DNA of 64,000 bases from a virus (taxonomy: Duplodnaviria > Caudoviricetes), in IMG/VR virus record IMGVR_UViG_3300030376_001752, positions 4,118 to 68,117 of that record; one strand, written 5' to 3'. Shown one piece after another: positions 5,088 to 62,674 of this stretch. Within the stretch, counting starts at the first letter, position 1; the number at the start of each line of letters is the position of its first letter. The notes under the pieces were generated by a model, which saw only the letters and a program-made list of their open reading frames with translations, was not told the DNA's origin and ran no database searches. The translations under genes were made by a program, and so were the position numbers.

Positions 5088-8000
5088 ATGCCAGAAATAA
5101 AACATCACTTTCGTGCAGGTAAGATGAATCAAGACCTGGACGAGAGGTTAATACCTAATGGAGAATATAGAGACGCTTTGAATATAGAGATCGCATCGTC
5201 TGAAGGAGATGATGTTGGTTCTATTCAAACTATCCCTGGAAACTCAAGAATTACTACCTTGGGTATTGCTGGTGCTGAGTGTATAGGTTCTTATGTAGAT
5301 CATGAGAACGACAAGATATATTGGTTTATATCAGGAACATTAATAGATGCTATAGCAGAGTACGATCCAAGAACAGATACTGTTGTACCTGTGCTTGTTG
5401 ATTCTCCTGCAACAAATGCTGACGCTATATTAGAGTTTAGTAAATACTGGCACATATGTGGTATAAACATTATTGATGGTTTATTATTTTGGACAACTGG
5501 TAATACAGAGCCTAAGATGATAAACATAAAAACATTTAAAGCTGGTTCAACAGACTTTAGCACTACTACTACTGTAGTAAATCAACACAATGGCTCATCC
5601 GGCCAATTTTCACTGTCAGATATAACTGTTATTAAAAAAGGGCCAACAATTGCCCCTACACTAACCATGTCTAATACTAAAAGATCTGGTATAGTTGAAA
5701 GCACTTTTACAACTATGGGCGCTCCAATTGTAAATAATAGTTTTACTGTTACAGATGCTTTAGGTGATATAGTTCCTGTAGAAACAACTATAAATCCTTT
5801 TATTATAACAATATTAGGTGGTAATATAATGGATTGGCAAGTTGGTGACAAATTAAGAGTTACACTTGCTGGTGGTTTAAGTAGTGAAGAAGCTATACTT
5901 AATGTTGTACAAACATTTTCAACATCACCTAATCAGTTTAGAGTAACTATAGATGCTATAAGTGAAGAGATAGAACAAGGTCAACAAGTGTGGGATATAT
6001 CTTTGGTTGAAGAGAAACCAATGTTTGAGTTTAAGTTTCCTAGATTTGCATTAAGATATAAGTTTAGAGATGGTCAGTATTCACCTATAGGTCCTTTTAG
6101 TGAATTAGCTTTTATACCAGACGAGTTTGATTACCAAGCTAAAAAAGGTTATAACTTGGGTATGAAAAATAATATAAGATCTTTAAAAATATCTGGTTTT
6201 GCAAACCCACCTTTAAACGATATAATTGAAATAGATATATTATACAAAGAAAGCAACCATAATAATATATACACAGTCCAAAGTATAAAATGTGAAACTG
6301 GCAAGCATGATCCAGAATATACGGCTGATGAGTTAGAAATAACGTCAGACATTATACACGCTGTTGTACCTAGTAATCAGTTGCTTAGGCATTGGGATAA
6401 CGTACCCAGAGAAGCTAGAGCACAAGAAATAACTGGTAATAGATTAGTATATGGTAACTTTACACACCAGTACAATCTAACAGACGCTAATGGTGGTGAG
6501 ATTACACCTAGGTTTGAAGTAAATATTGGTCAAAATAATTCTATATTACCTGAACCTAGAACACCGTCACCATCAATAAAATCATTAAGAACATATCAAG
6601 TAGGTGTTGTATATGCCGACGCATATGGTAGAGAAACGCCTGTGCTTACGGATCCAAGTGGTTCTTTTACTTTAGATAAGCAAGCTGCAGTTAACTATAA
6701 TGTTATGCAGGTTAAAATGCTTAGCAACGCTCCTTCATGGGCTGCTTCTTATAAATTCTTTATTAAAGAACCTAGTAACGAGTATTACAACGTGGCTATG
6801 GACAGACATTATGAAGCTGAAGATGGTAACGCTTGGATTTCATTTCCTTCATCTGAAAGAAACAAAGTTCATGAAGATAGATTTTTAATACTTAAAAAAG
6901 AACACGACTCAGATATTTTTGTACCTAAAGAAGCTAGATATAAAGTTCTAGCTGTTGAAAACGAAGCTCCGGATTTCTTGAGAATAGAAAACATAACTCA
7001 AGGACAATTAGAGTGTAACGATGATGGTAATCTGTTTTTAACACTAGGTTATCCTTCTACAGATCACGGGCATGTAGCAATACCTGGTGATAGATGGCAT
7101 GAAATATTTGGATCTGCCGACCCAACAGTAACCAACAATAACATACATACTTTAGCTTTACATGCTAAAAGTGATCTTGTACTTAGGGTATATACGGGTT
7201 CAAGAGAAACTAAGTTTTACGACGTTGCTAATATACAATACGTGCCAGCTAGTCCAGGTAATTATGCTGATGGTAGCACTGCTCCTGGTAATGATTATTA
7301 TAAAGTAGAAATTGATGGTAAGTTTGAAGAAGCTGATACGCAATGGTTAGGATCTGTTGCTGATAACAATACTTTAAGTAACTTAAATATTGAGTTTTAT
7401 CAAAAAAGAAGAAATAATAAACCAGAATTTACTGGTAGATTTTTTGCTAAACTAAACAAAGACTCAACACTAGAAGACGCTATATTATCAAAAGCAAATG
7501 ATGATGACCACAAGATAATACAGAGTATTAGAATGTGGGAGCAAAATACAGACACAAGAAATATAGACTACTGGCAAGATGCTAAAAAATTTAGCAACGG
7601 TGAAAGAGGTAGTGGTTGGTTTATAGACAGAGCTAAGAAAGCAAAAAGAAAAGGCGCTGGTGGTAGCGGTACTAATAGAAATACTGGTTATCCAGCACCA
7701 TACAATAAGAATAGTAATTGGAAAGGTATGGGTGTTCAAGCTGGTATGCAAGTTGTAGAGTTTGCTTATCACTGGTTTGGACATAAAGCACCTGGTAGTT
7801 GGGACGGACAATGGCATGGTTTTGAAACAAGTAAGAAACCACAATATGCTGATATGGTTAAACAAATGCAATCGCCTGGTGCTTTATTTAGATTTGGCGA
7901 TGATCCAACCCAAACAATTTATACTATCGTTAAATACAAAAGAAACCATTGGCAAGCATATAGCCATAAAAACGGTAAGTTCTCTTCTTCAAGAATTATT

Positions 8001-9521
8001 AGCTGGACGTTAGAGTTAGATAAGCCTATAGTTTGGGCTCCAGAAGACGAAACAGCAACTATAAACGGGACTAACTATAGTAACTTTGGTGGATCTAATT
8101 TAGGTGGTTCTACAGCTCATCACTCACGAGGTGATGTAACAACTCCTATTGAGTTTTTAGAAAAGTTTTCTGATACAGCTGGAGATGATAGTGATAGAAG
8201 TAAAAACCCTGCAATATTTGAAACAGAACCACTAGAAGATACTGATTTAGATTTATACTTCGAAGCTACGCACGCTTATCCTATTAGTCAACATGCTAAC
8301 CAGCAGACTCTACCTTATATGAATTGTTATTCGTTTAATAATGGTGTTGAGTCAAATAGAATACGTGATGATTTTAATGCTGTTACTATAGCTAAAGGTA
8401 TTAAAGCAAGTACAGTTTTAGCAGAAAAATACGAGACAGAAAGAAGAAAAAGTGGTTTAATATTCTCTGGATTATATAATAGTAACTCTGGAACAAACCA
8501 ACTTAATCAATTTATAATGGCAGAAGCTATTACTAAAGACTTAGACCCTAGTTATGGAAGCATACAAAAACTTCACGCTAGAGACACTAATTTAATTACT
8601 TTGTGTGAAGATAAGTGTTTGAGAATATTAGCTGATAAGGATGCTCTATTTAATGCAGACGGAAGCGCTAACATGGTAGCTGCTAATAGATTCTTAGGGC
8701 AAACCACACCTTATGTTGGTGAATTTGGTATATCTAAAAACCCTGAGTCATTTGCTAGTTATGGTTATCAAGCTTATTTTACAGATAAAAATAGAGGAGC
8801 TGTTATAAGGTTGTCTATGGATGGTATTACAAATATAACTGAACACGGTATGTCAGATTATTTTTCAGACAAACTTGGTAATGCTGCTAGACATGATTTA
8901 GTTATTGGTACTTATAATGAAGCTAAAAGACTTTATAATGTTACAATTAAAAACTCTGGTAGTATACATCAACCAGTTGCTGATAGAGGTGACACTACAG
9001 TTTCGTTTAGTGAAGCTGTAACAGGTTGGACAAGTAGAAAATCTTTTTCACCTGAATCAGGTGTTTCATTAAATGATAAGTATTATACATTTAAACAAGG
9101 TGATTTGTACGAGCATGGTGTAACAACAAGTTACTCTACATTTTACGGCACAGCTGTTACTCCTTTAGTTAGATTTATATTTAGTGACATGCCTAGTGTT
9201 GTTAAAACATACAAGACATTAAACTACGAAGGTACTCAAGCTAAATGGCTTGTTAACACGGCTGACAATGAGTATTATAATAATTTTGCTAAAGCAGGTT
9301 GGTACAACCAAAGCGTTGAAACTGATTTACAAGGTGGTAAAATAACTACGTTTAAAAACAAAGAAAACAAATGGTTTAATTTTATAGAAGGTTTATCAAC
9401 AGATATTAAAAATATAGACACAAATGAGTTTGCTGTTCAAGGTATAGGACAAGGAACTGTTACTGCTGATACTGGTAGCTTCAATGAATTAACATTAACA
9501 ATAAACGAAAACAACGACTAA
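5088..9521 (+). CDS. Large tail stabilisation / nozzle-like protein
   Basis: 1477 aa, beta-rich, N-terminal 'GKMNQDLDERL..GEYRDALN' pattern typical of podovirus tail stabilisation (nozzle-type) proteins. Confidence 0.65.
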   Translation: MPEIKHHFRAGKMNQDLDERLIPNGEYRDALNIEIASSEGDDVGSIQTIPGNSRITTLGIAGAECIGSYVDHENDKIYWFISGTLIDAIAEYDPRTDTVVPVLVDSPATNADAILEFSKYWHICGINIIDGLLFWTTGNTEPKMINIKTFKAGSTDFSTTTTVVNQHNGSSGQFSLSDITVIKKGPTIAPTLTMSNTKRSGIVESTFTTMGAPIVNNSFTVTDALGDIVPVETTINPFIITILGGNIMDWQVGDKLRVTLAGGLSSEEAILNVVQTFSTSPNQFRVTIDAISEEIEQGQQVWDISLVEEKPMFEFKFPRFALRYKFRDGQYSPIGPFSELAFIPDEFDYQAKKGYNLGMKNNIRSLKISGFANPPLNDIIEIDILYKESNHNNIYTVQSIKCETGKHDPEYTADELEITSDIIHAVVPSNQLLRHWDNVPREARAQEITGNRLVYGNFTHQYNLTDANGGEITPRFEVNIGQNNSILPEPRTPSPSIKSLRTYQVGVVYADAYGRETPVLTDPSGSFTLDKQAAVNYNVMQVKMLSNAPSWAASYKFFIKEPSNEYYNVAMDRHYEAEDGNAWISFPSSERNKVHEDRFLILKKEHDSDIFVPKEARYKVLAVENEAPDFLRIENITQGQLECNDDGNLFLTLGYPSTDHGHVAIPGDRWHEIFGSADPTVTNNNIHTLALHAKSDLVLRVYTGSRETKFYDVANIQYVPASPGNYADGSTAPGNDYYKVEIDGKFEEADTQWLGSVADNNTLSNLNIEFYQKRRNNKPEFTGRFFAKLNKDSTLEDAILSKANDDDHKIIQSIRMWEQNTDTRNIDYWQDAKKFSNGERGSGWFIDRAKKAKRKGAGGSGTNRNTGYPAPYNKNSNWKGMGVQAGMQVVEFAYHWFGHKAPGSWDGQWHGFETSKKPQYADMVKQMQSPGALFRFGDDPTQTIYTIVKYKRNHWQAYSHKNGKFSSSRIISWTLELDKPIVWAPEDETATINGTNYSNFGGSNLGGSTAHHSRGDVTTPIEFLEKFSDTAGDDSDRSKNPAIFETEPLEDTDLDLYFEATHAYPISQHANQQTLPYMNCYSFNNGVESNRIRDDFNAVTIAKGIKASTVLAEKYETERRKSGLIFSGLYNSNSGTNQLNQFIMAEAITKDLDPSYGSIQKLHARDTNLITLCEDKCLRILADKDALFNADGSANMVAANRFLGQTTPYVGEFGISKNPESFASYGYQAYFTDKNRGAVIRLSMDGITNITEHGMSDYFSDKLGNAARHDLVIGTYNEAKRLYNVTIKNSGSIHQPVADRGDTTVSFSEAVTGWTSRKSFSPESGVSLNDKYYTFKQGDLYEHGVTTSYSTFYGTAVTPLVRFIFSDMPSVVKTYKTLNYEGTQAKWLVNTADNEYYNNFAKAGWYNQSVETDLQGGKITTFKNKENKWFNFIEGLSTDIKNIDTNEFAVQGIGQGTVTADTGSFNELTLTINENND

Positions 9522-14552: not shown

Positions 14553-17500
14553 ATGGGATATTTCAATAGAAAATATTATAATACAGATAACGGTATAATA
14601 GACATTAGTGAACTCGATGAAAACCAGCAAATAAAGTTTTTCGTAAATAATCCTAATGCTGTAGAAGCAACTGAGCTTGAAACTAGAGAAGCTGGGTTAA
14701 CTAGACCAAACTCTGAAATTGTTAGTGAAGAGAATAGATTGTCTAAAAAAATGGAACAAGAACAAGAAGAAAAGTTTTTGTATTTAAAGTATGGAACGCC
14801 TAGACAAGATGATATTGAAATTAAACCAAGAATGTATGTAGGTGGTAAAGGTGACGAGGTTTCTAGAGAAGATTTTAATAGCGATACAGAGTGGAAAGCT
14901 TATCAGGTATGGAACGGTGATTTGAAAAGAGAAGCTGTACCTTTAAAGACTCAGGTGTACCAAAGAGTTAGAACTAATGACTTAGATGTTGGTGTTCAGA
15001 CTAGTGACTATTATTACAATAGAGACAAAAAAACAGATTTTGTAGACACACATTATGATAGCAAATCTTTAGAAGAAGCCGGTATAGATGTTGCTAATTT
15101 TCAAGGTTACTTAGAAAGTTCAGGTTATAGAGACGAATTTGATGAATATATAAATGATAACTCTTTTGATGGAAACTGGATTTCAGGCCAAAAAGAGTTA
15201 GACATAGCAAAAAACCGTACGTTAAAAGGTTATTTAGAACGTTATTTACAAGACGAAAATAATAGATTTACCGAAAAAATGTTTGTTGATGATTACTATC
15301 ACAACCAAGATAAATATAAAGATTACAAAGATTATTTTGAAGCATATGAAGCGTTTAAGACAGAGCAGTTTGGAGCTAAGAACGGTGGTGGTACTGTGTT
15401 TGATTACGAAAAACTAAACGCATATTCCGATGTTAATTACAAGAATGTCAAAGATAGAGATGCTTTAAATAGAAGAAATTTTATAAAACATATCGATGAT
15501 GTAGAGCAGCAGGGAGACGTTGTTGGTGGTGGTGCCGGTGCTTTAGAATTTTTTACTAGTGCTATTGGTGGAGCTTGGAGTGGATTAGATGAGTTATCTA
15601 TAACACTAGCTGATTGGTTTTGGATGGACGGCGTTGCTAATAGACGTAGATTTATTGACCAAGAACAAGATCTAGGTGATGCAGAATCAAACGCACAGTA
15701 TATGCTTTTTAGAGGTAAAATAGGTGAGATTGATGGTGTTCAATACGGCGTGGGTGATGATGGTAGTGTATATAATATAACTGAAAACCGAAATGTAACA
15801 AACGCTTTAACAGTAAATGAGATTGAAGAAATAACACAAACAGCAGAAAAAGAGAACTGGGAAGATGGTTATGATTGGTCAGCGAGAGGAAGTAGTAATA
15901 TGTCTGGGCATGTTATTGGTAATGTTATTTTTCAAATATTCGGTACAAAAGGAGCTGGTTATTTAAGAAACGTTGCTTCGTTAAAATATTTAGCAGCCGC
16001 AAATGGTTTTAAAAACGTAGCTCAATATGAAAAATACTTAAGACAAATAAAACTAAACCCTGAAAGACTAAAACAGTTTGGTGCAGCTAACAAAGGAACA
16101 TTTGGTAAAAAACTACCTTTTGATCCTAGAATAGTAGACGCTACAACTTTTCAAACTTTTTACGGTGCTACTACTGGATATGAAAGAACATTAAACGCGG
16201 CAGTAAACGCTGGTATACCTCGTGACGAGGCAGAAAAATTAGCAAGAACTGCTTCTGGGCAAATGGCGTTATTGTATGGTGTTACAGGTCCTATAAATCC
16301 TAGATTAGGAGGAATGAAATGGCTTGATAAACAATACTCTAAAATCTTTGGTAATGCTCAGCTTAACAATGTAATTAAAGCTTATAAACAAGGAGGTTTA
16401 AAAGGTGCTAACGATCAAATAAAAAAAGGTATAAAAAGTTTTATACCTAACAACCCAGGACAAATGCACAAAGCATTTTGGAGCGAAGGTGCAAGAGAAG
16501 TTTTACAAGAAAACATACAGCAAGGTGGTGAGTTTTTATTGGTTAACAGAAGTTTAAACGAGGCAGCTGGCCAAGAATTTTTAAAACAAGATTACACTTT
16601 AAGAGATTTTATAGAAACATCTGTTCTTTCTTTAGCTGCAGGTGGTTTAGTTGGTGGTTTTAGTTCAGCAAGCACAAGCACTATTAATAGTAAAAAAGCT
16701 CAGCTACAAGATATGTGGTCGTTGTCTAATAACATGAAGCAAACCAAAGAGTTATTAGGAGGAGCTGTAGAGAATGACATGTTAACTCAAGAAGAAGCAG
16801 ATGATCTTTATAAGTCTATACAGTCTATTGGTAAAGCTAAGCTACCTGCTTGGATGATAAACACTCCTGAAGAATATATTGAAGCTGCTAACGTACAAAA
16901 CGCGTTGGAAGTTTTAAAAAGAAAATCAAAGAAATCAGGTGATGAATCATCTAATAAAGATCAAATAGCAGCGCTAGAGAACAACTTAAAAGACATTGTT
17001 AAAAAAGCAGCGTCAGCTGAAATCAATAAAGAAATAGATTTTGTAGGTAAGATAGTTGGTAAGAAAAACATAAAAGTTTTTAATACGCCTGAAGAAATAA
17101 AAAAAGCTGGTTTTAGCTCTGAAATGTTTACAGATGGTTGGTTTGAATCAAACGGGGTTATATATATAAACAAAGAAATGGCTGCAGCAAACCAAGCTGT
17201 TAGTGTAGCTTCTCATGAGCTGTTACATAAAATATTAAAAGCTGAGTTTAAAGGTAATCCAGAAATACAAAAAGTTGTAAACGAGTTTAAAGAAATACTA
17301 AAAGAAAAAGGCGTGTGGAGCGCTATAGAAAGAAGAGAGGCTTTGTATAAAGCTGATGGTAGAGCTGATTTAGATGGTGTAGATGCTGATGAGTATTTGA
17401 CAATGTTCTCTGATGCACTAGCTAAAAATGAAATACCTTTTGAAGCATTAGAAGAAGCACAGTGGAAACAAATAGGTAGATCTATAATGACCGCTTTAAA

Positions 17501-20500
17501 AAAGAAACTTCCTAAAGCTTTAGGTGGACAAACAACAGAGTTTGCTACTGGTAGACAAGTATATGACTTTATATTAGATTATCACAAAAACATAAAGAAA
17601 GGTAGAATATCTAACCAAGCACAAAGAATGCTTGACATGTTTGAACCTGATGAGTTACAGAAAGATGATAAAGGTAATACTATAAATAGAAAAAGATCTA
17701 TTAATATAGAAAAAGAATCTAATCAAGAAATACTTAACCAACTTCCTAATGGTTTTAACGAGGCAACAGGTCAACAAGAAACTGAATTTATAAAAAGCAA
17801 ACAGTTTCAAGCTGCAAAAGCATTGATTGATAACGGCGCTTTTGATAGATTAATAGGTGCTAAGTTAGCAAGTGGTAGTAATATATTTGGAAGACCTAGA
17901 GAAGAGGTTATGGAAGAGATACGTGCTCAACTTGTAAGGCACTTAGAAAACTTTAACCCAGCAAAAAACAAAGATCTATTTGCTTATTTAAACTCTTACA
18001 TAGGTAGAAAAGTAGGTACTGTTACAACTAGAATAAAAAAGAGAAGAGTAAGAACTACGCCTTTAACTAAAGACATTAAAGGTGAAACAGTTGAAACACA
18101 GATAGCTGATATGGCTCCTGATCCAGAACAACAAATGATACTTGCTGAGGAACAAGCGGCTGCACTTATTAAATCAACTGAGCTTAAAATGGGTAAGAAA
18201 CTAGACCCAGATACTGTAGCTAAAGTTAAAAAACTTATAGTACCTATAATTAGAGATATGGATGTAAAGCTAACAGCTGATAAATCTATAAACGCTAAGA
18301 ACTCACCAATGATAAAGTATTTAAAAAATGCTTTAAAGAACTCTTTAGTATATGACGCTATGATTGCTGAGCTTGGTAAAGGTGAAGTTACAAAACAAAA
18401 GATACTTGAGTTTAAACAAGATGTTTTAAAAAATGCTACTACAACTTGGCTGCAAGGTAAAACACAGAAAAATGGTACGGTTAATGGAGGTATACCACAA
18501 GCTATAGATAAAGTTATAAAACTACAAGACGGTAGTGAAGTTAGAGTATCTTATCCTGATTGGGTTGGAGAAAAAATAGCTATAGAAAAAATGGGTACTG
18601 ATAACGCTGGTAGAACCGCGGGTCATGCCTTAGTATTTAGAAGTGAGCAAGAAGTAAGTGATGAAGCTTACATGTCTCAGTTTTACAAAGATGGCAAGCT
18701 AATAAGAAATAGAAAAGAATCTTTAGCAGAAGAAATGGCTAAGGAAATAGGTATAGAAATAATACTTGACGAACTTGTTAATAATCCTAAAGGTGAAATA
18801 GCACAAGCATTTGAACAAAATCAATTAGCAAAAGGTGTTATGAATGCTGTGCAAAAAATTGGTGAAGTATTTGTACAAGCAGACAGATCAGGTATAAAAA
18901 GATCTTTATCAGCAAACAAAGAAGTTGCTATCGCTAGATTTGAAAGACTAGCTATATTAGGTTACGAAGGTAACTTTAAATCTTTAGCAATGGAAAAAGA
19001 AATGCTGAGAGGAACTCCTTACGAGTTTGTTATAAAAATATATGAAGAAAACTTTGCACTTGATGCTGAAGCTTTAACTGGTTTTATTGATCCAATGAAA
19101 GCTTACGCTGAAACATTACCAGAAAGCGATCCTACCAAAAAATATATACAAGAGTTTTTAAACATGGATAAAGCTCAGAAAATAAAAGCTATAGCTAGTT
19201 TTTCAGAAGAATTAGCTAAAGTTATACCACCTGAGTTGTTTAAACTACCTAATCTTGGTTACGACTTTTTAGGTGTATTTGATAGAGTTATAAAACCTAA
19301 TTCACCTGAAGGGGTTAAAATTAAAAAAGCAGCTGACAGTGATGTTGATGGTGAAGTCCCTGCTTGGATGGAAGATATACTACCTATATTCAGCACAGGT
19401 GGTATTGTAGGTTCTATAGTAAACAAAATACAAAACAAAACATTTGCTAGTAAAGAAGAAGCACAGCAAGAGTTTGATAAACTATATGCTGAGAAAATAG
19501 AAAAAGCAAACATTGCTAACATTAAACTCTTTAACTATATTGTAGACGCTGCTACTAAGGTTGTTGCTAAAAACCCTAAGCTTATGCCTGGTTATTTAGC
19601 TTTGTTCCAAAGTAACACGGGGGATATAATAAAAGGTATGAGAGCTTTTGGCGTATTGCAAGATGTAGAAATACATGCTGAGATACAAGCTCCTTTTATT
19701 AGTAAAGATGGTACTAAAGGTTATAAATCAATAGACGCTACAAATAGAAAAGCTTATGATGCTGGAGATATACAAATAAATTATAACCACCCTTTATTTG
19801 CTAGAGTAAAAAAATATGTTGACGATCAAATTGCTGAACTACAAGAAGAACTAGCAAACACAACAGCTCCTAAAAAGAGAGAGAAGTTATTAAAAAGAAT
19901 AAATAAAGACAGAGATGAATTATATAGAGCTCTACTAAGACCTTACACAGAACATAAAAACCCTGCTTCAAATAAATTTGGTGATATAGCAAGAGACCAA
20001 ATGGTGATACTTAGCAAGATAATAGGTAAAGGTTTGACAGATTCTCAAATAGATGTCGCTATAAACGCTTATCAACTGCACAACGGTAAGCTTGCAGATA
20101 TTATATCTGATTTTACAATGACTATAAACACTTCTGTTATATCAAAGATACAAGATGATATACATAGTAAGACGAGTAGTTTAGGAGATGCTAGAGTTTT
20201 TGCTATTGAAAATCAATACGTACAAAATTTATATCCTATAAAAGGACAGGTTCCAGCTTTAAAAAGAGCTGACAATGTTTTAAAAGCAGATGTTGATCAG
20301 TTTGTTAAGATAATGGAGCTGCAAAATGCTATCAACACATCTAATAGCACTAAAAGAAGTTTAAGCCCTAGAGGTATTAGTGTTTATGATTTTGACGACA
20401 CACTAGCTTTTAGTAAAAGTCAAATAATAGTAACAATGCCTAATGGTAAGGTGACTAGAATTACACCTGCTAAGTTTGCTACTGATGCAACTAAACTAGA

Positions 20501-22961
20501 AAAGCAAGGTGCTCAATTTGATTTCAGCGAATTTAATGATGTTATAGATGGTAAACCTGGACCGTTAATACCTAGGTTAAGAAAAGCAATTGATAAGTTT
20601 GGTAATAAAAACATATATGTATTAACAGCTAGACCACAAGCGTCTGCACTAGCTATATATAAATTCTTAAAAGGCTTAGGTGTAGAAATACCTTTAGAAA
20701 ACATTACAGGTTTAGAAAACGGTAAGCCTAGCGCTAAAGCTAATTGGATGATTGGTAAGATAGCTAAAGGTTATAATGACTTCTACTTTGTTGATGATGC
20801 TATGAAAAACGTGTCAGCAGTTAAACAAGTTTTAGAAAACTATGATGTAAAAGGTAAAGTTCAACAAGCTGTTATAAAAAGAAAAAGAAGTCTTAACATC
20901 GACATCAACCAGATGATTGAAAGAAACACTGGTGTTGGTGCAGAGAAAACATACTCTAAGGTTGTAGCTAGAAAGAAAGGTGCTGGTAAATTCCAAAACC
21001 CATTTGTTCCTTACAGTGCTGAAGATTTTAGAGGTTTAACATCTTACACTTTATCTGGTAAAGGTAAACAAGGTGAGCAAGATCAACAGTTCTTTGAAGA
21101 CAATTTAATAAATCCTTACATAAGAGGAGTTGCTGCCATGGAAACGATTAGGCAAGCAATGAAAAACGAATATGATAGATTGTTAAAAGCAAACCCAGAG
21201 CTTAGAAAGAAAATAAACAAAGAGGTTCCTGAATTAGGATTTACACATGACCAGGTTATAAGGATATACTTATACAACAAAGCTGGATATGAAGTTCCTG
21301 GTATATCTAAAAGAGATTTAAAAGCTGCGGTTGATTTTGTTACTAAAAACGAAGACATAGAATTATTTGCTAATGAACTACTTTTATTAACAAAAGGTAA
21401 TCAATGGGTAAAACCTGATGAATTTTGGGATGTTGGTAGTTTATTAAAAGATCTTAACACGTTTAATGATGATGTAAATAGAAAAGAATATCTAGCTGAG
21501 TTTATAGAAAACGTTGACATTATGTTTGACGAAGCAACCTTAAATAAACTTGAAGCTATATATGGAACAAAATATAGAAAAGCTTTAGAGAATATAATAG
21601 CTAGAATGAAGTCTGGTAGTAATAGACCAAGTAAAATGGGTACTACAGAAACAAAATGGATGAATTGGTTAAATAATTCTGTTGGTTCTATAATGTTCTT
21701 TAACAGAAGATCTGCTTTGTTACAGATGTTATCATTTGCTAACTTTACAAACTGGTCTGATAATAATCCAATTGCGGCTGCTGCGGCTTTTGCTAACCAG
21801 CCTTTATATTGGAAAACATGGGTAAGAATATTTAACTCTGATAAATTAAAACAAAGACGTGGTGGTTTAAAATCAGATTTACAAGAACAAGAGATTGCTA
21901 ACGCTGCTAAAAACTCTAAAGGTAAACCTGAAGCTATTATAGCTTATTTATTGAAAATAGGTTTTACACCTACACAAATAGCAGATAGTATGGCTATTGC
22001 TACAGGTGGTGCTAGCTTTTTAATAAATAGAACTAAAACATATTTAAAACAAGGTTTATCACAAGAAGAAGCTGATGCTAAAGCTTTTGAAGATTTTAGT
22101 AAAATATCTGATGAGACTCAGCAGTCTGGTGATCCAATGCTTATATCATCTCAACAAGCTAGTCATTTAGGTAGGATAATACTAGCGTTCCAAAACACTC
22201 CTATGCAGTATACGAGATTAATAAAGAAAGCTGCACAAGATTTATACAATGGTAGAGGTGATGCTAAAACTAATATATCTAAAATATTATATTATGGATT
22301 TGTACAGAACTTAATATTTAACGGTTTACAACAAGCTTTATTCGCATTAACAGATCCGTTCTTTGATGATGATGAAGAAGAATATGAAAAAGAATTAGCA
22401 AAGAAAGAAGTAAAAATAATAAACGGTATGATTGATAGTATATTGAGAGGTACTGGTTTATACGGAGCTGTTGCTGTTGGTTTAAAAAATACATACAGAA
22501 CTTACATGAAGCAAGAGGAAAAAGGTTATAGAGCAGATCATGCTCACACTCTTATTGAGTTAGCCAACATTTCACCTCCTCTTGGATCTAAAATGAGAAA
22601 AGTTTACTCTTCAATTTTAGAATACAAATACAACAAAGCATTAATTAAAGAAAGAGGTTGGTCGTTAACGGCTGACGGTAGAGTAAACGTTGCTCCCAAC
22701 TATATGATACTAGCTAATCTTGTTTCTGCTGGATTTAACGTTCCTCTTGATAGAGCTATTATAGAGATTAACGGTATTTCAGAATCACTTGATAATAGAA
22801 ACAATGCAATGCAAAGAATAGCTTTACTACTAGGATTTAGAACTTGGGATGTAAATGTTAAAAATGAAGAAAATGATTTTATAGAAGCTTTCTATAAAGA
22901 ATTAAAAGAATTAGAAAAGAAGAAGAAAAAGAGGCACACACCACGTAAAAGAAAGAAATAA
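14553..22961 (+). CDS. Giant (2802 aa) ejection/polyvalent polyprotein: zincin peptidase, sigma-region-2-like domain, HAD phosphatase
   Basis: Gly-rich hydrophobic helices near both ends; HELLH (HExxH) at about 17214; sigma-like segment at about 17800-18170; HAD motifs DFDDT / LTAR / K / FVDD at 20370-20850; four KRS[L/I] motifs. Confidence 0.75.
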   Translation: MGYFNRKYYNTDNGIIDISELDENQQIKFFVNNPNAVEATELETREAGLTRPNSEIVSEENRLSKKMEQEQEEKFLYLKYGTPRQDDIEIKPRMYVGGKGDEVSREDFNSDTEWKAYQVWNGDLKREAVPLKTQVYQRVRTNDLDVGVQTSDYYYNRDKKTDFVDTHYDSKSLEEAGIDVANFQGYLESSGYRDEFDEYINDNSFDGNWISGQKELDIAKNRTLKGYLERYLQDENNRFTEKMFVDDYYHNQDKYKDYKDYFEAYEAFKTEQFGAKNGGGTVFDYEKLNAYSDVNYKNVKDRDALNRRNFIKHIDDVEQQGDVVGGGAGALEFFTSAIGGAWSGLDELSITLADWFWMDGVANRRRFIDQEQDLGDAESNAQYMLFRGKIGEIDGVQYGVGDDGSVYNITENRNVTNALTVNEIEEITQTAEKENWEDGYDWSARGSSNMSGHVIGNVIFQIFGTKGAGYLRNVASLKYLAAANGFKNVAQYEKYLRQIKLNPERLKQFGAANKGTFGKKLPFDPRIVDATTFQTFYGATTGYERTLNAAVNAGIPRDEAEKLARTASGQMALLYGVTGPINPRLGGMKWLDKQYSKIFGNAQLNNVIKAYKQGGLKGANDQIKKGIKSFIPNNPGQMHKAFWSEGAREVLQENIQQGGEFLLVNRSLNEAAGQEFLKQDYTLRDFIETSVLSLAAGGLVGGFSSASTSTINSKKAQLQDMWSLSNNMKQTKELLGGAVENDMLTQEEADDLYKSIQSIGKAKLPAWMINTPEEYIEAANVQNALEVLKRKSKKSGDESSNKDQIAALENNLKDIVKKAASAEINKEIDFVGKIVGKKNIKVFNTPEEIKKAGFSSEMFTDGWFESNGVIYINKEMAAANQAVSVASHELLHKILKAEFKGNPEIQKVVNEFKEILKEKGVWSAIERREALYKADGRADLDGVDADEYLTMFSDALAKNEIPFEALEEAQWKQIGRSIMTALKKKLPKALGGQTTEFATGRQVYDFILDYHKNIKKGRISNQAQRMLDMFEPDELQKDDKGNTINRKRSINIEKESNQEILNQLPNGFNEATGQQETEFIKSKQFQAAKALIDNGAFDRLIGAKLASGSNIFGRPREEVMEEIRAQLVRHLENFNPAKNKDLFAYLNSYIGRKVGTVTTRIKKRRVRTTPLTKDIKGETVETQIADMAPDPEQQMILAEEQAAALIKSTELKMGKKLDPDTVAKVKKLIVPIIRDMDVKLTADKSINAKNSPMIKYLKNALKNSLVYDAMIAELGKGEVTKQKILEFKQDVLKNATTTWLQGKTQKNGTVNGGIPQAIDKVIKLQDGSEVRVSYPDWVGEKIAIEKMGTDNAGRTAGHALVFRSEQEVSDEAYMSQFYKDGKLIRNRKESLAEEMAKEIGIEIILDELVNNPKGEIAQAFEQNQLAKGVMNAVQKIGEVFVQADRSGIKRSLSANKEVAIARFERLAILGYEGNFKSLAMEKEMLRGTPYEFVIKIYEENFALDAEALTGFIDPMKAYAETLPESDPTKKYIQEFLNMDKAQKIKAIASFSEELAKVIPPELFKLPNLGYDFLGVFDRVIKPNSPEGVKIKKAADSDVDGEVPAWMEDILPIFSTGGIVGSIVNKIQNKTFASKEEAQQEFDKLYAEKIEKANIANIKLFNYIVDAATKVVAKNPKLMPGYLALFQSNTGDIIKGMRAFGVLQDVEIHAEIQAPFISKDGTKGYKSIDATNRKAYDAGDIQINYNHPLFARVKKYVDDQIAELQEELANTTAPKKREKLLKRINKDRDELYRALLRPYTEHKNPASNKFGDIARDQMVILSKIIGKGLTDSQIDVAINAYQLHNGKLADIISDFTMTINTSVISKIQDDIHSKTSSLGDARVFAIENQYVQNLYPIKGQVPALKRADNVLKADVDQFVKIMELQNAINTSNSTKRSLSPRGISVYDFDDTLAFSKSQIIVTMPNGKVTRITPAKFATDATKLEKQGAQFDFSEFNDVIDGKPGPLIPRLRKAIDKFGNKNIYVLTARPQASALAIYKFLKGLGVEIPLENITGLENGKPSAKANWMIGKIAKGYNDFYFVDDAMKNVSAVKQVLENYDVKGKVQQAVIKRKRSLNIDINQMIERNTGVGAEKTYSKVVARKKGAGKFQNPFVPYSAEDFRGLTSYTLSGKGKQGEQDQQFFEDNLINPYIRGVAAMETIRQAMKNEYDRLLKANPELRKKINKEVPELGFTHDQVIRIYLYNKAGYEVPGISKRDLKAAVDFVTKNEDIELFANELLLLTKGNQWVKPDEFWDVGSLLKDLNTFNDDVNRKEYLAEFIENVDIMFDEATLNKLEAIYGTKYRKALENIIARMKSGSNRPSKMGTTETKWMNWLNNSVGSIMFFNRRSALLQMLSFANFTNWSDNNPIAAAAAFANQPLYWKTWVRIFNSDKLKQRRGGLKSDLQEQEIANAAKNSKGKPEAIIAYLLKIGFTPTQIADSMAIATGGASFLINRTKTYLKQGLSQEEADAKAFEDFSKISDETQQSGDPMLISSQQASHLGRIILAFQNTPMQYTRLIKKAAQDLYNGRGDAKTNISKILYYGFVQNLIFNGLQQALFALTDPFFDDDEEEYEKELAKKEVKIINGMIDSILRGTGLYGAVAVGLKNTYRTYMKQEEKGYRADHAHTLIELANISPPLGSKMRKVYSSILEYKYNKALIKERGWSLTADGRVNVAPNYMILANLVSAGFNVPLDRAIIEINGISESLDNRNNAMQRIALLLGFRTWDVNVKNEENDFIEAFYKELKELEKKKKKRHTPRKRKK

Positions 22962-35866: not shown

Positions 35867-36631
35867 TTACAGGTAATCAAGCACTTGCGAGTGGTCTACG
35901 TTTTCTATTAATTTGTTTACCGCTTGCTTTTTTAGTTGTGAGACTCTTACATAAGAACTACTACCTTCAATATTTAATATTGATGCTATCTCTTTTGCTG
36001 AGTGTTTCTCACAGTCTAATCCATAACTTAATCTTAACACATTGTATTCTCTATCATCTAGATGTTTCTTTAACAAACTAGTTAAATACATATTAAGTAA
36101 GTTCATGTTGTATGGCTCGGATTTGTCTGGTATTTGATATATCATATTCTCATCATTGTTTGGTTTGTCATCAATGCTTAAGAATATTGAGTTGAAAAAC
36201 ATTGCTACCATTTTCTTATCCTTGCCAAAGTTTTTACGTATTTCGTTTAGCTTATGCTCAGGTATACGTATGTCACCTCTATGAATATCTATTGATCTTC
36301 TTATCGCGCCTCTAATTCTTTTAGATAAAAAGCTTTTCATTGTCTGCTCTTTATCTTCAGACTCATTCATTCTTTCCCAATCAATTCTATCCACAGCTTT
36401 TGTCAAGCCAATTCTTCCATCTTGTATAAGATCTCTTATGTCTAACACTCCAGAAGCTTGTTGACTTGTAGAGAATTTTCTAGCTAAGTTTTCTACTAAA
36501 GGTAGAAATTTAGTTATCAATTCATCTCTTGTGTACAAATGATAATCTGTACCGTAATCCGGTAACCTTTCTAAGGTTTCTTCAAGGTCATTCTTATCTC
36601 TAATGTAGCCTTGAATATTATATTTCTTCAT
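35867..36631 (-). CDS. Phage sigma-70 family RNA polymerase sigma factor
   Basis: Region 2 'LPLVENLARKF...DLIQDGRIGLTKAVDR...IRGAIRRSI'; region 4 HTH 'REYNVLRLSYGL...SAKEIASILN...RVSQLKKQAVNKL'. Confidence 0.9.
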   Translation of the reverse strand: MKKYNIQGYIRDKNDLEETLERLPDYGTDYHLYTRDELITKFLPLVENLARKFSTSQQASGVLDIRDLIQDGRIGLTKAVDRIDWERMNESEDKEQTMKSFLSKRIRGAIRRSIDIHRGDIRIPEHKLNEIRKNFGKDKKMVAMFFNSIFLSIDDKPNNDENMIYQIPDKSEPYNMNLLNMYLTSLLKKHLDDREYNVLRLSYGLDCEKHSAKEIASILNIEGSSSYVRVSQLKKQAVNKLIENVDHSQVLDYL

Positions 36632-45711: not shown

Positions 45712-47283
45712 ATGGAATTCAATCATCCGAGCGATATTGTCAAAGACTTAAATTTTGGCAATGACGCGAAAAGTAAGATAATTACAGGTGTAGATAAGCT
45801 AGCTAAAGCAGTTAGATCTACATTAGGTGCATCTGGTAAATGTGTTATTTACGAAGACGCTAGAGGAAAACCGGTTATAACAAAAGACGGAGTAACAGTA
45901 GCAGAATCTGTTGTCTTATATGACCCGGTTGAGAATATAGGTGCTACACTTATAAAAGAAGCGGCTAGAAATACAGTGAAAGAAGCAGGTGACGGTACCA
46001 CTACGGCTACTGTCCTTGCTGAATCACTACTAAAAACAGTAAATAACGAAAAATACAAAGATGAACCTATTAGAGAAGTCAAGGCAGGAATCACAACCGG
46101 TCTTGAAAAGATTAATAAATACCTTTCAGAACACGCCAAAACAATATCTGGCTCTCAGCTTACCAATGTGGCAACGATTTCATGTAATAATGATCAGGAA
46201 CTTGGTGGCATTATTGCGTCAGCTTACGAAAAGGTAGGTGAAGATGGTGTAGTTTTAATGGAAGAAAGTGAAAATGAGGTAACATATGCTGATATTGTGC
46301 AAGGAGTACAGTTAGAATGTGGTATGACATCATCTCATTTTGTAACAGATAAAGATAGACAAGTAGCAATACTGGAAAATCCATACGTTTTGATCGTAAC
46401 GTCACCAATTGCTAACTTAAGAAAGATACAACCTATACTAGAGCATGTTATAAAGAAGAACAGATCTCTATTAATTGTTGCTGGTGTTGAAGAACAAGTA
46501 AAATCAGCGCTATTAATGAACAAAGTAAAGGGTAATATCAAGGTAAACATAATAGATCCGCCAGGTTTTGGCCCTACAAAGGAAGATACGGTGCAAGATT
46601 TAGCATTATTAACCGGTGCAACTATTATGAATGAAGAGCTTGGAGATGATCTTGATCTGATCCGGCCAGATTGTTTGGGTGAAGTAGTCAAATCTGTAAC
46701 TGATAACAGAACTACAGTCCTAACAACTGGCTCTACAGGAGAAAATCTACAAGATAGACTAAAAGAAATAAGAAAAAAGATAAAAGATTCTAAAGATCCT
46801 TATATAACACGTAGATTACAGCAAAGATTAGCTATGTTAAACGGTGTTGTAGGTATAGTAAAGGTAGGAGCAACCTCAAAAGTTGAATTAAAAGAGAAAA
46901 AAGATAGAGTTGAGGATGCAATTTACGCTACAAAAGCGGCTTTACAAGAAGGAATCGTTCCCGGCGGCGGTATTGCACTGTTAAACGCAGCTTTAAATAC
47001 AAAAGAAGAAAATGTTGGTGAAAAAATACTATCAGAAGCTATAGTTTCACCATTTAGAACAATTTTAGAGAACGCTGGAATAGAAAATATAAAAATTCCG
47101 TCTAAAGACGGTTACGGTATTGATGTTACTACTGGAAAAGAGGTTGATATGATTAAACATGGTATAATCGACCCAGTTTTAGTTACAAAAACCGCGCTAA
47201 AGAATGCAGTTAGCGTAGTTTCAACAATAATTTCTGCAGATTGTGTAATTTCTAATATAAGAATAACCAATGCGAGCAATTAA
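45712..47283 (+). CDS. groEL: Chaperonin GroEL (phage-encoded)
   Basis: 'TKDGVTVA', 'AGDGTTTATVLA', 'EGIVPGGG', 'GIIDP'; lacks the GGM tail. Confidence 0.95.
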   Translation: MEFNHPSDIVKDLNFGNDAKSKIITGVDKLAKAVRSTLGASGKCVIYEDARGKPVITKDGVTVAESVVLYDPVENIGATLIKEAARNTVKEAGDGTTTATVLAESLLKTVNNEKYKDEPIREVKAGITTGLEKINKYLSEHAKTISGSQLTNVATISCNNDQELGGIIASAYEKVGEDGVVLMEESENEVTYADIVQGVQLECGMTSSHFVTDKDRQVAILENPYVLIVTSPIANLRKIQPILEHVIKKNRSLLIVAGVEEQVKSALLMNKVKGNIKVNIIDPPGFGPTKEDTVQDLALLTGATIMNEELGDDLDLIRPDCLGEVVKSVTDNRTTVLTTGSTGENLQDRLKEIRKKIKDSKDPYITRRLQQRLAMLNGVVGIVKVGATSKVELKEKKDRVEDAIYATKAALQEGIVPGGGIALLNAALNTKEENVGEKILSEAIVSPFRTILENAGIENIKIPSKDGYGIDVTTGKEVDMIKHGIIDPVLVTKTALKNAVSVVSTIISADCVISNIRITNASN

Positions 47284-53111: not shown

Positions 53112-53297
53112 ATGATAATTAAAGTAGAATATGATAAATCAGATGCTACTTTAACGCTCACAAAAGACGATAATATAGTTGCTGTTATCAATGACAATAC
53201 GGTTGTTGATAATAGCGACACATTATCTTTTGAAATAGCGTTAAACGTATCTCAATATCAAGAACAATTTTTAATAGATGGCGAACCTAACGAGTAG
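53112..53297 (+). CDS. Small hypothetical protein
   Basis: 61 aa between tail genes. Confidence 0.55.
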   Translation: MIIKVEYDKSDATLTLTKDDNIVAVINDNTVVDNSDTLSFEIALNVSQYQEQFLIDGEPNE

Positions 53298-55824
53298 TCA
53301 GTCTGGTAACTGGACAAGCTCTTCAACTTGGGGAGGTTCCACTCCTGCTGACGGAGACACATTTACTATTTCACAAGGACATATAGTAACAGTAAACTCT
53401 GATCAAAGAGCTGGTACTGGTTTTGGTGATATACTTGTTAGAGGTAATCTACATTTTGCAACTAACGGTAAAATTAGAATTAACGGTAGAATTACTGTAC
53501 AAGGTAATGGTTCTACTGATTATTCTAAAAGTGGTGGTGTTTCCGCACAAGACTTTACTGAAGGTGGTAGTTCTTCTGGTGCTTTATTATCTGCTACAGG
53601 TAACAACATACATTTAGAATTTGAAGGTACTGATGCTGATCAACATGGTATATGGGTAGAAAACATAAGCTATTCATCTTGGAAGTTTATAGGTGATGAT
53701 AGTGTAACAACCACAGAGTTAAGCGCTGTTGCTAATACAAATGATGATTATATAACTGTTGATAGCGCTACTGGTTTTGGTATTGGAGATTGGGTTGCAA
53801 TATACAAAGGAGTAGGAACTAATAGATATTACCATGGAGATGAAGGTTGTTGGGTTCATGATGTTGATACATCTAATAATAGAATATATGTAAAAAAGTT
53901 TGTAGGTCCTAAGGCAATAGTTTCTTCTGCCAGCGGTACTTCCTTAGTTGTTGATCACACTAAAATATTCAGAGTAGGCTACAAAATTATATTCGGCACA
54001 GGAAGTAATAGAAACACAAGAACTATAACCGCAATAAATCACACAACAAATACATTAACATTAAATTCTACTATATCTGGTACTATATCAAGTGGTACTG
54101 AGGTATATGAAACTGGTTTAGATAAAAAGCACGCGGTCGACTGTAAAGTTAGGGTTAATGCGCATGTGCTTACTAGCGCTGGCGCTGTTGGTGATACTAC
54201 AGTAACTGTTAGCGATGCAACAGATATAAGTGTTGGACATACCATAAATATTGATGTTAATAATGATGTTGATACAAATTGGGATTATAATAGCGAATAC
54301 GAAGTTACTAATAAAAGTGGTAACACATTAACAATTAGTCCAGCTCTAGGACACGTTAGAAAAGTTGGTAGTTTAGTACAAAGATTAGATAGATCAATAA
54401 CAATAGAAGGTGTAGATACAGATGTTAGAGCTTTTTGCTACGTAGAATATGATACTGATAGTAATAGAGCTGGTACAAGAGAAATTGGTTTAAAAGATAT
54501 ACGTTGGTACAGAATGGGTGGTAATACTAATAATAATTTTTACCGCGGTGCTTGTATGGTTGCTGGTTATAATAGTGATATTGGTACTGGTTATGCTACA
54601 AACTCAAGAGAAGATTATCAAAGTGGTTATCAAAATTGTGTAGTGCATGACTCAAATAATAAGAATAATTACACTGGAATGAACAGTAGGCATGCTATAG
54701 GTTTTATTTGGAGAAATTGCATTTCAGTTAATGCTGGTCAAAGAGCTTATTGGCAATGGTCGTCTCATTACAACGTACAGTTTGTAAATAACTACGGTAC
54801 AAGAAATGCTTACGCTACTGTAGATAACGGCGCGATGTATGATAACCCAGAATACGCATACAATTACTCAACAAGATCTGATGATTATGCTTGGCTGCTT
54901 CATCACATGAGAAACATAAACTCAATACATAATAACATTTTCTTAAATCACGAGCAAAGACCTTTTTATATATATTACCAAACATCTGGAATACAATTTA
55001 GAAGAATGCATTTTGATGGTTTTAGAAATATACCTTATATAGGTATGGGTGGTGGACCAGTTGAATTTAGAGATTCATATTTTCAAAACAAATATTATAA
55101 ACACATACCAGGTACATACGCTGGTTATACAGACACTTTTGGCGTTGTGGATGCAAATGATTATATGGGTAATAGCGGTTGGGACGGTAGAGCTGATTAC
55201 ACTAGAAACCCAGGTTTTGGTATGTTAAGTGAGTGGTTTGATTGGAATTTTGAAGAAAATAAAACCGCTGTTGTAGAGGCAACAAACTTGATATGGCAAG
55301 AAAACCAAGACAAGATATGGGGTCTTGTTAATTTAAGATCAGAACATGCGTTAGCCTGTCAATCTCATATATACGTACCACCAAATACAAGTGTTACAAT
55401 AACAGGTGAATTTAAAGGTCAAGCTAGTGGAAGTTATACAAGACCTTATTTACTCGCTAGAAAAGCAACTGAAAGATGGATGGGTAGATACTCAATTTTA
55501 AGTGGAGAGCATACATCAACTTTTAATCTTAGTAGCAGTAGTGATGTTAAAAATAGTAATGTGTATGGTTTTTTAGAACAAACACAATTTACTGAATCTA
55601 GTTACGGTGCTTGGGAACAAAAAACATTAACTTTAGATGCACAGAAATATGGCTATAAATTAATAGCTGGTTACAAAATAGCTAGTAACAATCAAGAAGA
55701 AATAGGCTATGTAAAAGATTTAGAAATAACACTTGGCTCAAAATCAAAAATGAAGTCAAGACATTTTGAATCAAGATCAATACATAGCGGTGCTAGTAAA
55801 AAACGAATATCAGGAAGAATTTAA
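53278..55824 (+). CDS. Tail spike-like protein (G8-like N-terminus, beta-helix)
   Basis: 'SSQSGNWTSSSTWGGSTP..GD' N-terminus; Asn/Tyr-rich central repeats. Confidence 0.6.
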   Translation: MANLTSSQSGNWTSSSTWGGSTPADGDTFTISQGHIVTVNSDQRAGTGFGDILVRGNLHFATNGKIRINGRITVQGNGSTDYSKSGGVSAQDFTEGGSSSGALLSATGNNIHLEFEGTDADQHGIWVENISYSSWKFIGDDSVTTTELSAVANTNDDYITVDSATGFGIGDWVAIYKGVGTNRYYHGDEGCWVHDVDTSNNRIYVKKFVGPKAIVSSASGTSLVVDHTKIFRVGYKIIFGTGSNRNTRTITAINHTTNTLTLNSTISGTISSGTEVYETGLDKKHAVDCKVRVNAHVLTSAGAVGDTTVTVSDATDISVGHTINIDVNNDVDTNWDYNSEYEVTNKSGNTLTISPALGHVRKVGSLVQRLDRSITIEGVDTDVRAFCYVEYDTDSNRAGTREIGLKDIRWYRMGGNTNNNFYRGACMVAGYNSDIGTGYATNSREDYQSGYQNCVVHDSNNKNNYTGMNSRHAIGFIWRNCISVNAGQRAYWQWSSHYNVQFVNNYGTRNAYATVDNGAMYDNPEYAYNYSTRSDDYAWLLHHMRNINSIHNNIFLNHEQRPFYIYYQTSGIQFRRMHFDGFRNIPYIGMGGGPVEFRDSYFQNKYYKHIPGTYAGYTDTFGVVDANDYMGNSGWDGRADYTRNPGFGMLSEWFDWNFEENKTAVVEATNLIWQENQDKIWGLVNLRSEHALACQSHIYVPPNTSVTITGEFKGQASGSYTRPYLLARKATERWMGRYSILSGEHTSTFNLSSSSDVKNSNVYGFLEQTQFTESSYGAWEQKTLTLDAQKYGYKLIAGYKIASNNQEEIGYVKDLEITLGSKSKMKSRHFESRSIHSGASKKRISGRI

Positions 55825-55834
55825 AATATAAAAC

Positions 55835-61894: not shown

Positions 61895-62090
61895 TATAGG
61901 TAAAGACTATAAGAACGAAGCAATGCATTATTCTGTAGATCAAGAGGTTTATGGAGGACATATTATTGATAGTATAGTTGAAAACGAAGATAAATTTTGT
62001 ATATTTATTAAAAAACAAGACGAAGTGCTACCATGGAAAGAGTTTAATAAAAACATGGCTATCGCAGTAGAATTTAACTTGGAGTATTAA
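61872..62090 (+). CDS. Hypothetical protein
   Basis: MKLIRKISIGKDYKN...; start moved to 61872. Confidence 0.65.
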   Translation: MKLIRKISIGKDYKNEAMHYSVDQEVYGGHIIDSIVENEDKFCIFIKKQDEVLPWKEFNKNMAIAVEFNLEY

Positions 62091-62674
62091 TGAAGGGAAT
62101 TTATAACTTTGTTATCGAGCCTGTAGGCGAGAGATACAATAATGTAAAAAAAATAGGTGATAAAGATCTAATACTAAATACTAAGATGTTTACACATCAA
62201 TTTGTAAACAGAGAAGGTTTAGTGTTAGAAACACCTATTATAAACGATACTGGTATACAAAAGGGAGATATAGTTGTAGTTCATCATAACATTTTTAGAC
62301 GTTACCAAGATATAAGAGGTGAAGAAAAAAATGGTAGATCATACTATAAAGACAACAAATATTTTGTTTTTAGTGACCAAATATTTTTATACAAAAGAAA
62401 TAATATAGCCTATCCATTAAAAGGGTATACTTTTGTAAAACCAATAGAATCAAATGATATTTTTAATTTAAGTAAAGAAACTGAGTTAATGGGTATAGTA
62501 AAACATACAGACTCTAACGACTTTAAAAAAGGTGATTTAGTTGGTTTTAAACCAAGTAGTGAATACGAGTTTGTCGTAGATGGAGAAAGGTTGTATAGAG
62601 TTTTAACACCAGCAATAACAGTTAATTATGAATATCAAGGAAACGAAAAAGAATATAATCCAAGCTGGGCATAG
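62090..62674 (+). CDS. Tandem GroES-like protein
   Basis: Two halves with GroES patterns ('IQKGDIVVVH'; 'PLKGYTFVKP...KKGDLVGF...VDGERLY'). Confidence 0.55.
   Translation: MKGIYNFVIEPVGERYNNVKKIGDKDLILNTKMFTHQFVNREGLVLETPIINDTGIQKGDIVVVHHNIFRRYQDIRGEEKNGRSYYKDNKYFVFSDQIFLYKRNNIAYPLKGYTFVKPIESNDIFNLSKETELMGIVKHTDSNDFKKGDLVGFKPSSEYEFVVDGERLYRVLTPAITVNYEYQGNEKEYNPSWA

Follow-up and report, generated by a model that had tools for sequence, protein, structure and literature searches.

Among the viral proteases that act on short peptide motifs, the prohead protease gp21 of phage T4 cuts [L/I]-x-E in the IPs and in Alt, gp175 of phage phiKZ cuts [S/A/G]-x-E, and the polyproteins of positive-strand RNA viruses are divided at sites such as the Q|G of picornavirus 3C. 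A system close to the one described here is that of the polyvalent proteins of phages and conjugative elements, which have a zincin-like MPTase domain as their hub (Iyer, Burroughs, Anand, de Souza and Aravind 2017, PMC5512222). Autoprocessing of these proteins by the zincin was proposed on architectural grounds (PMC5512222), and defined cut sites for polyvalent giant proteins were not found in the literature searched. The present text concerns a 64-kb window (the whole stretch analysed, 64,000 nucleotides) of the 68,117-bp, single-contig genome of a marine, flavobacterial-type phage (IMG/VR record IMGVR_UViG_3300030376_001752), and in this window the gene at 14553..22961, on the plus strand like all its parts described below, which encodes a protein of 2802 amino acids (aa) with zero cysteines. 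The units of this protein are separated by copies of a short peptide, KRS[L/I], which its relatives keep at the corresponding places in the more general form K-x-S, and which changes from lineage to lineage in several junctions of a protein together. A junction peptide that is conserved, exposed and concertedly evolving is best explained as a cleavage site, and the gene product would then be a virion-carried polyprotein.

The tripeptide KRS occurs exactly four times in the protein, every time as KRS[LI], and there is no further [KR][KR]S[LIVM]. An earlier description of the locus from the letters alone (the sequence-only reading) had listed these four sites at residues 1047, 1449, 1934 and 2111, with KRS nowhere else, and had placed them at domain boundaries. 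The count and the positions are verified in the 2802-aa open reading frame (ORF), and the location in linkers is borne out by AlphaFold2 models of residues 840-1460 and 1440-2125, made with alignments from homologous loci. Site A (KRSI, residues 1047-1050, nucleotides 17691..17702) corresponds to residues 208-210 of the first model, within a stretch, 202-213, where the predicted local distance difference test (pLDDT) is below 50. Site B (KRSL, residues 1449-1452, 18897..18908) has a pLDDT below 50 in both models, and in the first its residues 610-612 lie within the low stretch 603-621. Site C (KRSL, residues 1934-1937, 20352..20363) coincides with a dip in pLDDT, to a mean of about 56 over a 10-residue block, and sits in the second model between a long helix and the first strand of a HAD domain. 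Site D (KRSL, residues 2111-2114, 20883..20894) falls in the stretch 659-676 of the second model, where the pLDDT is again below 50. A KKS at residue 793 was considered as a fifth site and rejected, being unconserved.

Taken by itself, the excess of the motif in this single protein is suggestive and modestly significant, not strong. From the composition of the protein KRS[LI] is expected 0.09 times, it is observed four times, and four is attained in 0 of 20000 shuffles, in a test that makes no look-elsewhere correction. KRS taken only as a tripeptide (4 observed, 0.6 expected) ranks as the 9th most over-represented in the protein, and a tripeptide as extreme or more so is present in 1995 of 2000 shuffles. 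The tetrapeptide pattern fares better, since KRS[LI] is the most extreme pattern of the form XYZ[group] in the protein and is equalled by some pattern in 32 of 1000 shuffles; it is because this look-elsewhere correction gives a family-wise p of about 0.03 that the statistics must be called modest. Both corrected results leave room for the explanation that the recurrence arose by chance or belongs to the DNA, as a recombination joint or a repeat left by module shuffling. This explanation, already disfavoured, becomes highly improbable when the relatives of the protein are considered, where the motif is present at corresponding junctions across the homologues and representatives examined.

The family comprises more than 3100 proteins matched among 8000 candidates scored, and its hallmark C-terminal domain is found in 2902 representative clusters (50% identity) at E <= 0.001, from public and largely marine metagenomes. 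In full-length matches, which are proteins of 2500-3300 aa, this domain is always at the C-terminal end. When the junctions of the homologues are located by their conserved flanks, and not by the motif itself, the peptide [VI]-K-x-S-x-[STG] is kept at the corresponding junctions in well over 100 of them. The form KRS[L/I] given by the sequence-only reading therefore describes the window's lineage, and has to be replaced for the family as a whole by K-x-S, in which x is aromatic (F, Y or W) in most lineages outside the clade of the window, where it is R, and is K in a third group and E in a few; the commonest form family-wide is K-[FYW]-S, and two homologues have N-Y-Q or Q-F-Q in place of K-x-S. 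Site B, in the context ERG-x-[VI]-K-x-S, is the best conserved junction, with K1449 and S1451 each at least 90%; site D has the context QQA[RK]-[VI]-K-x-S, and site A is K-x-S-[LIVM]-[ST] in most homologues. Residues downstream of the motif also agree between the junctions of one protein, as in the P0065 group, with [KY]SLGL four times, and in the P0115 group, with K[FL]SKGL three times.

Judged from these alignments, the junction motifs within a protein evolve in concert. As an example, consider the class of x at sites B and D in the first 190 sequences: it is R at both sites in 62 cases, aromatic at both in 23 and K at both in 8, with only 3 cases off the diagonal. Such a raw table could mirror shared ancestry, and phylogenetically controlled tests were made for this reason. 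In a swap test with 42 path-disjoint pairs, the B motif of a protein fits its own D motif better than that of its relative in 16 pairs and worse in 2, with ties in 24 (sign test, p 0.0013).

The codons argue further against an origin at the level of DNA. Serine is encoded by TCT, TCT, AGT and AGT at the four window sites, and in the homologues by TCN in 14 and AGY in 13 cases at site B, and by AGY in 46 and TCN in 12 cases at site D, so that switches between the TCN and AGY families are included, while the arginine codons of the homologues are AGA, AGG, CGA and CGT. The DNA that flanks the four window sites is unrelated. Since both serine families and four arginine codons are used, selection acts on the peptide and not on the DNA, and a repeat in the DNA, a recombination joint or gene conversion is disfavoured as the source.

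The peptide recurs between units of very different kinds. Several unrelated domains are carried on the one polypeptide, namely zincin residues, a sigma-2-like fold, a HAD fold with its motifs and two more conserved modules, and as the folds are unrelated, the shared peptide cannot be explained by domain duplication. The modules guessed by the sequence-only reading are broadly supported, as described below, with the exception of a full sigma-like factor. The N-terminal region (14553..17129, from residue 1 up to about 859), in part conserved among family members and with no family or fold assigned to it, is followed by the zincin-like metallopeptidase domain (17130..17672, residues about 860-1040), which has HELLH at 17214-17228 (H888, E889, H892) and a putative third zinc ligand, E947, at 17391-17393. 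All 50 aligned homologues have these four residues unchanged, and HExxH is found in 188 of 190. The order of secondary structure in the model fits a zincin, with strands first, the HExxH helix after them and the Glu helix last. The Pfam matches are weak and sub-threshold (Peptidase_M78, E 0.06; Peptidase_M13, E 3.9e-4 in one homologue), and structure searches with the 621-residue model returned lists filled by the sigma-like domain.

Directly after site A comes a helical domain that resembles region 2 of sigma factors (17700..18053, residues about 1050-1167). In VIA-align, 20 of the top 21 matches are sigma region-2 domains, with Z 5.7-7.0 and a root-mean-square deviation (rmsd) of about 3-6.5 Å over 71-101 residues, all of them under the caution line of Z 8. 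The Foldseek list is headed by sigma70 chains at E 0.05, and Pfam Sigma70_r2 is sub-threshold (12.2 bits against a cut-off of 24, E 0.16), with matches in 3 of 32 homologues (best E 0.005). There is no Pfam match to Sigma70_r4 (region 4) in the window protein or in the 32 homologues, and the structure search barely covered that part. A conventional sigma factor is encoded elsewhere in the window, at 35867-36631 on the minus strand (Pfam Sigma70_r2, E 1.4e-7; Sigma70_r4, E 1.5e-6); it was considered as a paralogue of the module and rejected, there being no profile similarity. The sigma-2-like identity of the module is therefore tentative, because Z is below the caution line, no region 4 is seen, and no relation links the module to the sigma factor that the phage encodes elsewhere. 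Of the sigma-like factor proposed by the sequence-only reading, the fold match at Z of about 7 and the sub-threshold Pfam signal stand, and region 4 was not detected.

The rest of this module B (18054..18896, residues 1168-1448) contains a strongly conserved block that ends with E-R-G-x-[VI] just before site B. Module C (18906..20351, residues 1452-1933) is a confidently folded alpha/beta module with a pLDDT of about 90, for which searches with the multi-domain model gave no fold or family match and the ESM Atlas gave low-score leads only. Between sites C and D lies the HAD phosphatase cassette (20364..20882, residues 1938-2110), with D1946-x-D1948-x-T1950, T2025, K2062 and D2081-D2082; these residues make up HAD motifs I-IV (DxDxT, T/S, K, DD), and their columns are invariant in alignment A3. 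The best fold match is the 3'-phosphatase of T4 Pnkp (5uj0_B, Z 9.3, rmsd 3.1 Å, 116 aligned residues), followed by Pnkp1 (4xrp_A, Z 8.8) and T4 PNK (1ltq_A, Z 8.8). By its predicted fold the cassette is nearest to the T4 Pnkp 3'-phosphatase, an assignment to subfamily that is soft because many other HADs follow at Z 7-8.

The C-terminal domain (20892..22958, residues 2114-2802, about 690 aa) is the most conserved part of the family, with a mean column identity of 66% over 30 homologues, and it has no relative in Pfam or in the PDB. Clusters that bear LPD38 or LPD39 are listed as near neighbours of this domain in the ESM Atlas, and may serve as a lead. The families MPTase-PolyVal, MuF and LPD were not reported by Pfam for the protein, for its five pieces or for 32 + 30 homologue pieces; Foldseek gave zero PDB matches at E <= 0.001 with either model, and PDB profile searches with alignments A2, A3 and A4 gave none of significance. 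Searches with the whole protein sequence against Pfam, PHROGs, the PDB and 50,697 phage records gave zero matches. Many homologues (P0013-P0017, P0026-28, P0036, P0046, L028, L056 and others) carry a further conserved peptide, K-R-S-[AE]-x-A (for example EKAKRSAAA), about 26 residues from the C-terminus. It occurs also in K-[FYW]-S lineages, is independent of the junction code, and is absent from the window protein, the tail of which is KKKKKRHTPRKRKK. Short matches that seemed to be natural split genes beginning at site D were rejected, as they are contig-end fragments or broken assemblies; on the P0224 contig the gene is in three pieces at the contig start.

When the composition of the units varies, the behaviour of the peptide becomes informative. 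In the homologues P0219, P0221, P0223, P0233 and P0236, which lack the HAD cassette, both of the motifs that would flank it are retained, about 16 residues apart (for example KFSKS...PKGKVYKP..KFSKT), and where a P-loop kinase is nested within the cassette (P0040, P0082), the junction peptide is absent around the kinase. By these two observations the motif marks functional units and not every domain border. The nested kinase (GGPGAGKT; Pfam Zeta_toxin/AAA_33) is inserted after HAD motif I in P0040, P0058 and P0082, at about residues 1990-2363, and the resulting kinase-phosphatase unit recalls T4 Pnkp.

The reading preferred here is that the gene encodes a virion-carried 'polyvalent' polyprotein of five units, joined by an exposed peptide of the form [VI]-K-x-S-x-[S/T/G], in the window KRS[L/I]. 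The units would be the N-terminal region with the zincin, the sigma-2-like module, the 480-aa module, the T4-Pnkp-like HAD 3'-phosphatase and the 690-aa C-terminal domain, and a single protease, most probably the zincin (HExxH...E) that the protein itself contains, would recognise the junction peptides. Made as one chain, all modules would be packaged jointly and in fixed proportion, to be released by cutting either in the capsid once it is filled or in the host after ejection; cutting after injection, as the sequence-only reading had it, is thus one of two options. In gluzincins the main specificity pocket is S1'. By analogy, we guess that the chain is cut at K|x, where the P1' residue would be x (Arg, or Phe, Tyr or Trp elsewhere). 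Cutting of the sites by one protease or another we regard as fairly probable, and to the fuller proposition, that the polyprotein is processed at its junctions by its own zincin, we would give an even chance.

The identity of the protease deserves separate consideration. No prohead-type protease or other endopeptidase, apart from an M15 endolysin, was detected with Pfam or PHROGs among the ORFs scanned, a scan that did not extend to several small early-region ORFs. In the remainder of the genome KRS shows no enrichment and is never KRS[LI]; real genes there contain it three times (KRSG in the portal and in the muzzle, KRSY in the terminase). It is because no other endopeptidase was detected, and KRS[LI] is confined to the giant protein, that the built-in, invariant HExxH...E zincin is the obvious candidate. 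Suppose instead that the sites are cut by a host protease, or by an unrecognised phage protease that acts in the procapsid as T4 gp21 and phiKZ gp175 do, and that the zincin has some other role, such as an attack on a host protein or on the cell wall. Conservation and concerted evolution of the sites would fit this equally well, as they are silent on what reads the motif, and an effector role for such zincins was also allowed by Iyer et al. (PMC5512222). A general capsid-maturation protease is, however, not indicated by the distribution of KRS in the genome, and a host protease explains poorly why lineage-specific versions of the motif change in step; together with the outcome of the ORF scan this makes cutting by another enzyme distinctly unlikely. 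In one homologue, P0097 (2893 aa), the N-terminal 1046 residues differ and HEAGSH replaces HExxH; its site D is K-A-S, and its sites B and C keep KRS. In this single case the motif might have decayed in connection with the loss of the zincin.

A number of observations weigh against processing by the protein's own zincin. No residue position in the zincin tracks cleanly whether the motif is of the R or the aromatic type, as might also be expected if the cutter were another enzyme; an acidic D-x-D-G loop before E947, considered as the determinant of motif type, was rejected, since it is common in basic-motif lineages, yet present in some aromatic ones. The peptidase is not above the Pfam threshold, cleavage products have been seen for no family member, and no homologue was detected in any cultured phage by the whole-protein search of the 50,697 phage records. 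Site A is less regular in aromatic lineages, there are mixed proteins (P0050, P0119), and K-Y-S stands at site C in some KRS lineages; these mixtures may mean that x is simply tolerant of large residues. Switches from R to aromatic are scarce (about 4-8), and the single binary-trait tests with independent pairs are non-significant (median p 0.125 to 1) because there are too few switches; the direction is almost always the same. Finally, the virion RNA polymerase of phage N4 has a zincin-type HExxH domain (PMC13434306) and is, as a giant virion protein, reportedly packaged unprocessed (PMC5512222), and therefore a zincin in a giant virion protein is not alone a proof of cutting.

The N4 polymerase is at the same time the precedent for a protein that works uncut, being an ejected protein of giant size that has a zincin-like domain and remains in one piece. 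The modules would then remain tethered, and K-x-S would be a hinge, a docking peptide for the portal or ejection path or for a host factor, or a site of serine modification. A common binding partner would likewise yield concerted evolution, and the invariant Ser and Lys could be determinants of modification or recognition. What such a role leaves unaccounted for is that the four to five copies are all placed exactly where two unrelated, swappable units meet, and that the peptide persists when units are swapped among relatives (for a kinase or other enzymes), which is the pattern of cleavage sites in a polyprotein; the sigma-like module would, moreover, be expected to need release before it could join the host RNA polymerase. 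An uncut protein is for these reasons a possibility that we hold to be unlikely, and cleavage at the junctions is preferred.

If the cleavage sites are confirmed, they would define the products that are delivered ahead of the phage DNA, in this case a phosphatase for RNA/DNA ends, a sigma-like module and an enzyme of unknown kind, and they would show how new cargo cassettes get added between standard junctions. The residue-exact and lineage-varying candidate sites make the zincin-processing hypothesis of 2017 directly testable. One may go further and imagine that the family uses a co-evolving code of protease and junction, by which swappable cassettes enter one virion polyprotein and are freed in the host, and that the sigma-2-like module (from residue 1050) is an injected sigma-like factor that steers the host core RNA polymerase to unusual early promoters of the phage. 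This extension is speculative and doubtful; if true, the injected factor would be a route to early transcription unlike the virion RNA polymerases of N4 and of crAss-like phages.

Packaging in the virion is suggested by synteny. The giant gene is the last large gene in the block of particle genes; upstream are genes with crAss-type muzzle, ring-like and tail-fibre signatures, and the gene of the M15 endolysin lies about 2.7 kb downstream, with a thioredoxin gene and other small ORFs in between. There are no transmembrane-like segments in the 2802-aa protein. Of the cultured phages, those that come nearest by their major capsid protein are the Flavobacterium 'elemo' podoviruses, Maribacter phage Panino and Cellulophaga phi38:1, which have the same gene order as the window phage and a giant cysteine-free gene in the matching position. 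In the elemo phages and in phi38:1 (gp101) these positional analogues carry a structural-protein annotation, from which it may be supposed that the window protein is also packaged. The analogues are not sequence relatives; BLAST of the giant protein against those of the elemo phages and phi38:1 found no similarity, and homology was rejected on this ground. The absence of cysteine from the non-homologous analogues of an elemo phage (3694 aa; L083 18719-29803) and of phi38:1 (gp101, 1691 aa; L085 19423-24498) may perhaps reflect a common constraint on ejected proteins.

Some other genes of the window are also worth recording. A 1477-aa protein at 5088-9521 (plus strand) has the crAss-type muzzle N- and C-terminal Pfam domains PF25731 and PF25729, and by this domain content ties the 68-kb flavobacterial-type podophage group structurally to the tail of Crassvirales. 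A GroEL-type chaperonin at 45712-47283 (plus strand; Cpn60_TCP1, E 6.7e-54) and a GroES-like co-chaperonin at 62090-62674 (plus strand; phrog_13932) are present, and both are encoded by phi38:1 and the elemo phages as well. In a second plus-strand block, at 53278-61021, a minor-tail-like gene is followed by two more large ORFs, of 848 and 1728 aa, neither of which has a significant Pfam or PHROG family.

How, then, does the protein compare with known systems? The HAD cassette resembles the 3'-phosphatase of T4 Pnkp (PseT) in its full set of four HAD motifs and in fold, with T4 Pnkp and Pnkp1 as the best matches (Z 8.8-9.3); it differs in being free of a kinase, which some homologues nest as a P-loop kinase, and in sitting in a predicted virion polyprotein. 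We know of no motif that punctuates N4 gp50. This virion RNA polymerase of 3500 aa is a giant protein ejected by a podovirus, as is predicted for the window protein, and carries a zincin-type HExxH (PMC13434306), and it differs in being reportedly packaged whole (PMC5512222), in carrying a T7-like RNA polymerase and in showing no sequence similarity to the window protein. The processing by T4 gp21 and phiKZ gp175 is alike in that a short linear motif directs the cutting of proteins that are loaded into the capsid and later injected, and in that the specificity for the motif varies among phage lineages. Both are free-standing enzymes of capsid maturation, with capsid and scaffold proteins among their substrates, whereas here no prohead protease was detected among the ORFs scanned, the motif occurs in a single protein, and the candidate zincin lies within its putative substrate. 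The polyproteins of positive-strand RNA viruses work in a similar way, with one chain, an embedded protease, a short junction consensus and co-evolution of protease and sites; they are evolutionarily unrelated, the present case being a DNA phage with a candidate metallopeptidase, the products of which would be injected cargo rather than replication proteins. The polyvalent proteins, finally, are alike as giant chains of unrelated enzymatic or effector modules around a zincin-like peptidase, encoded in the block of phage particle genes, and also in the autoproteolytic release of modules that was proposed for them (PMC5512222). Pfam MPTase-PolyVal and LPD are undetected here, and the hallmark C-terminal domain belongs to no described family. 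The present result founds no new class and refines the published hypothesis (Iyer et al. 2017): the cleavage motif was left undefined there (PMC5512222), and here an explicit junction peptide, conserved and co-evolving, has been mapped.

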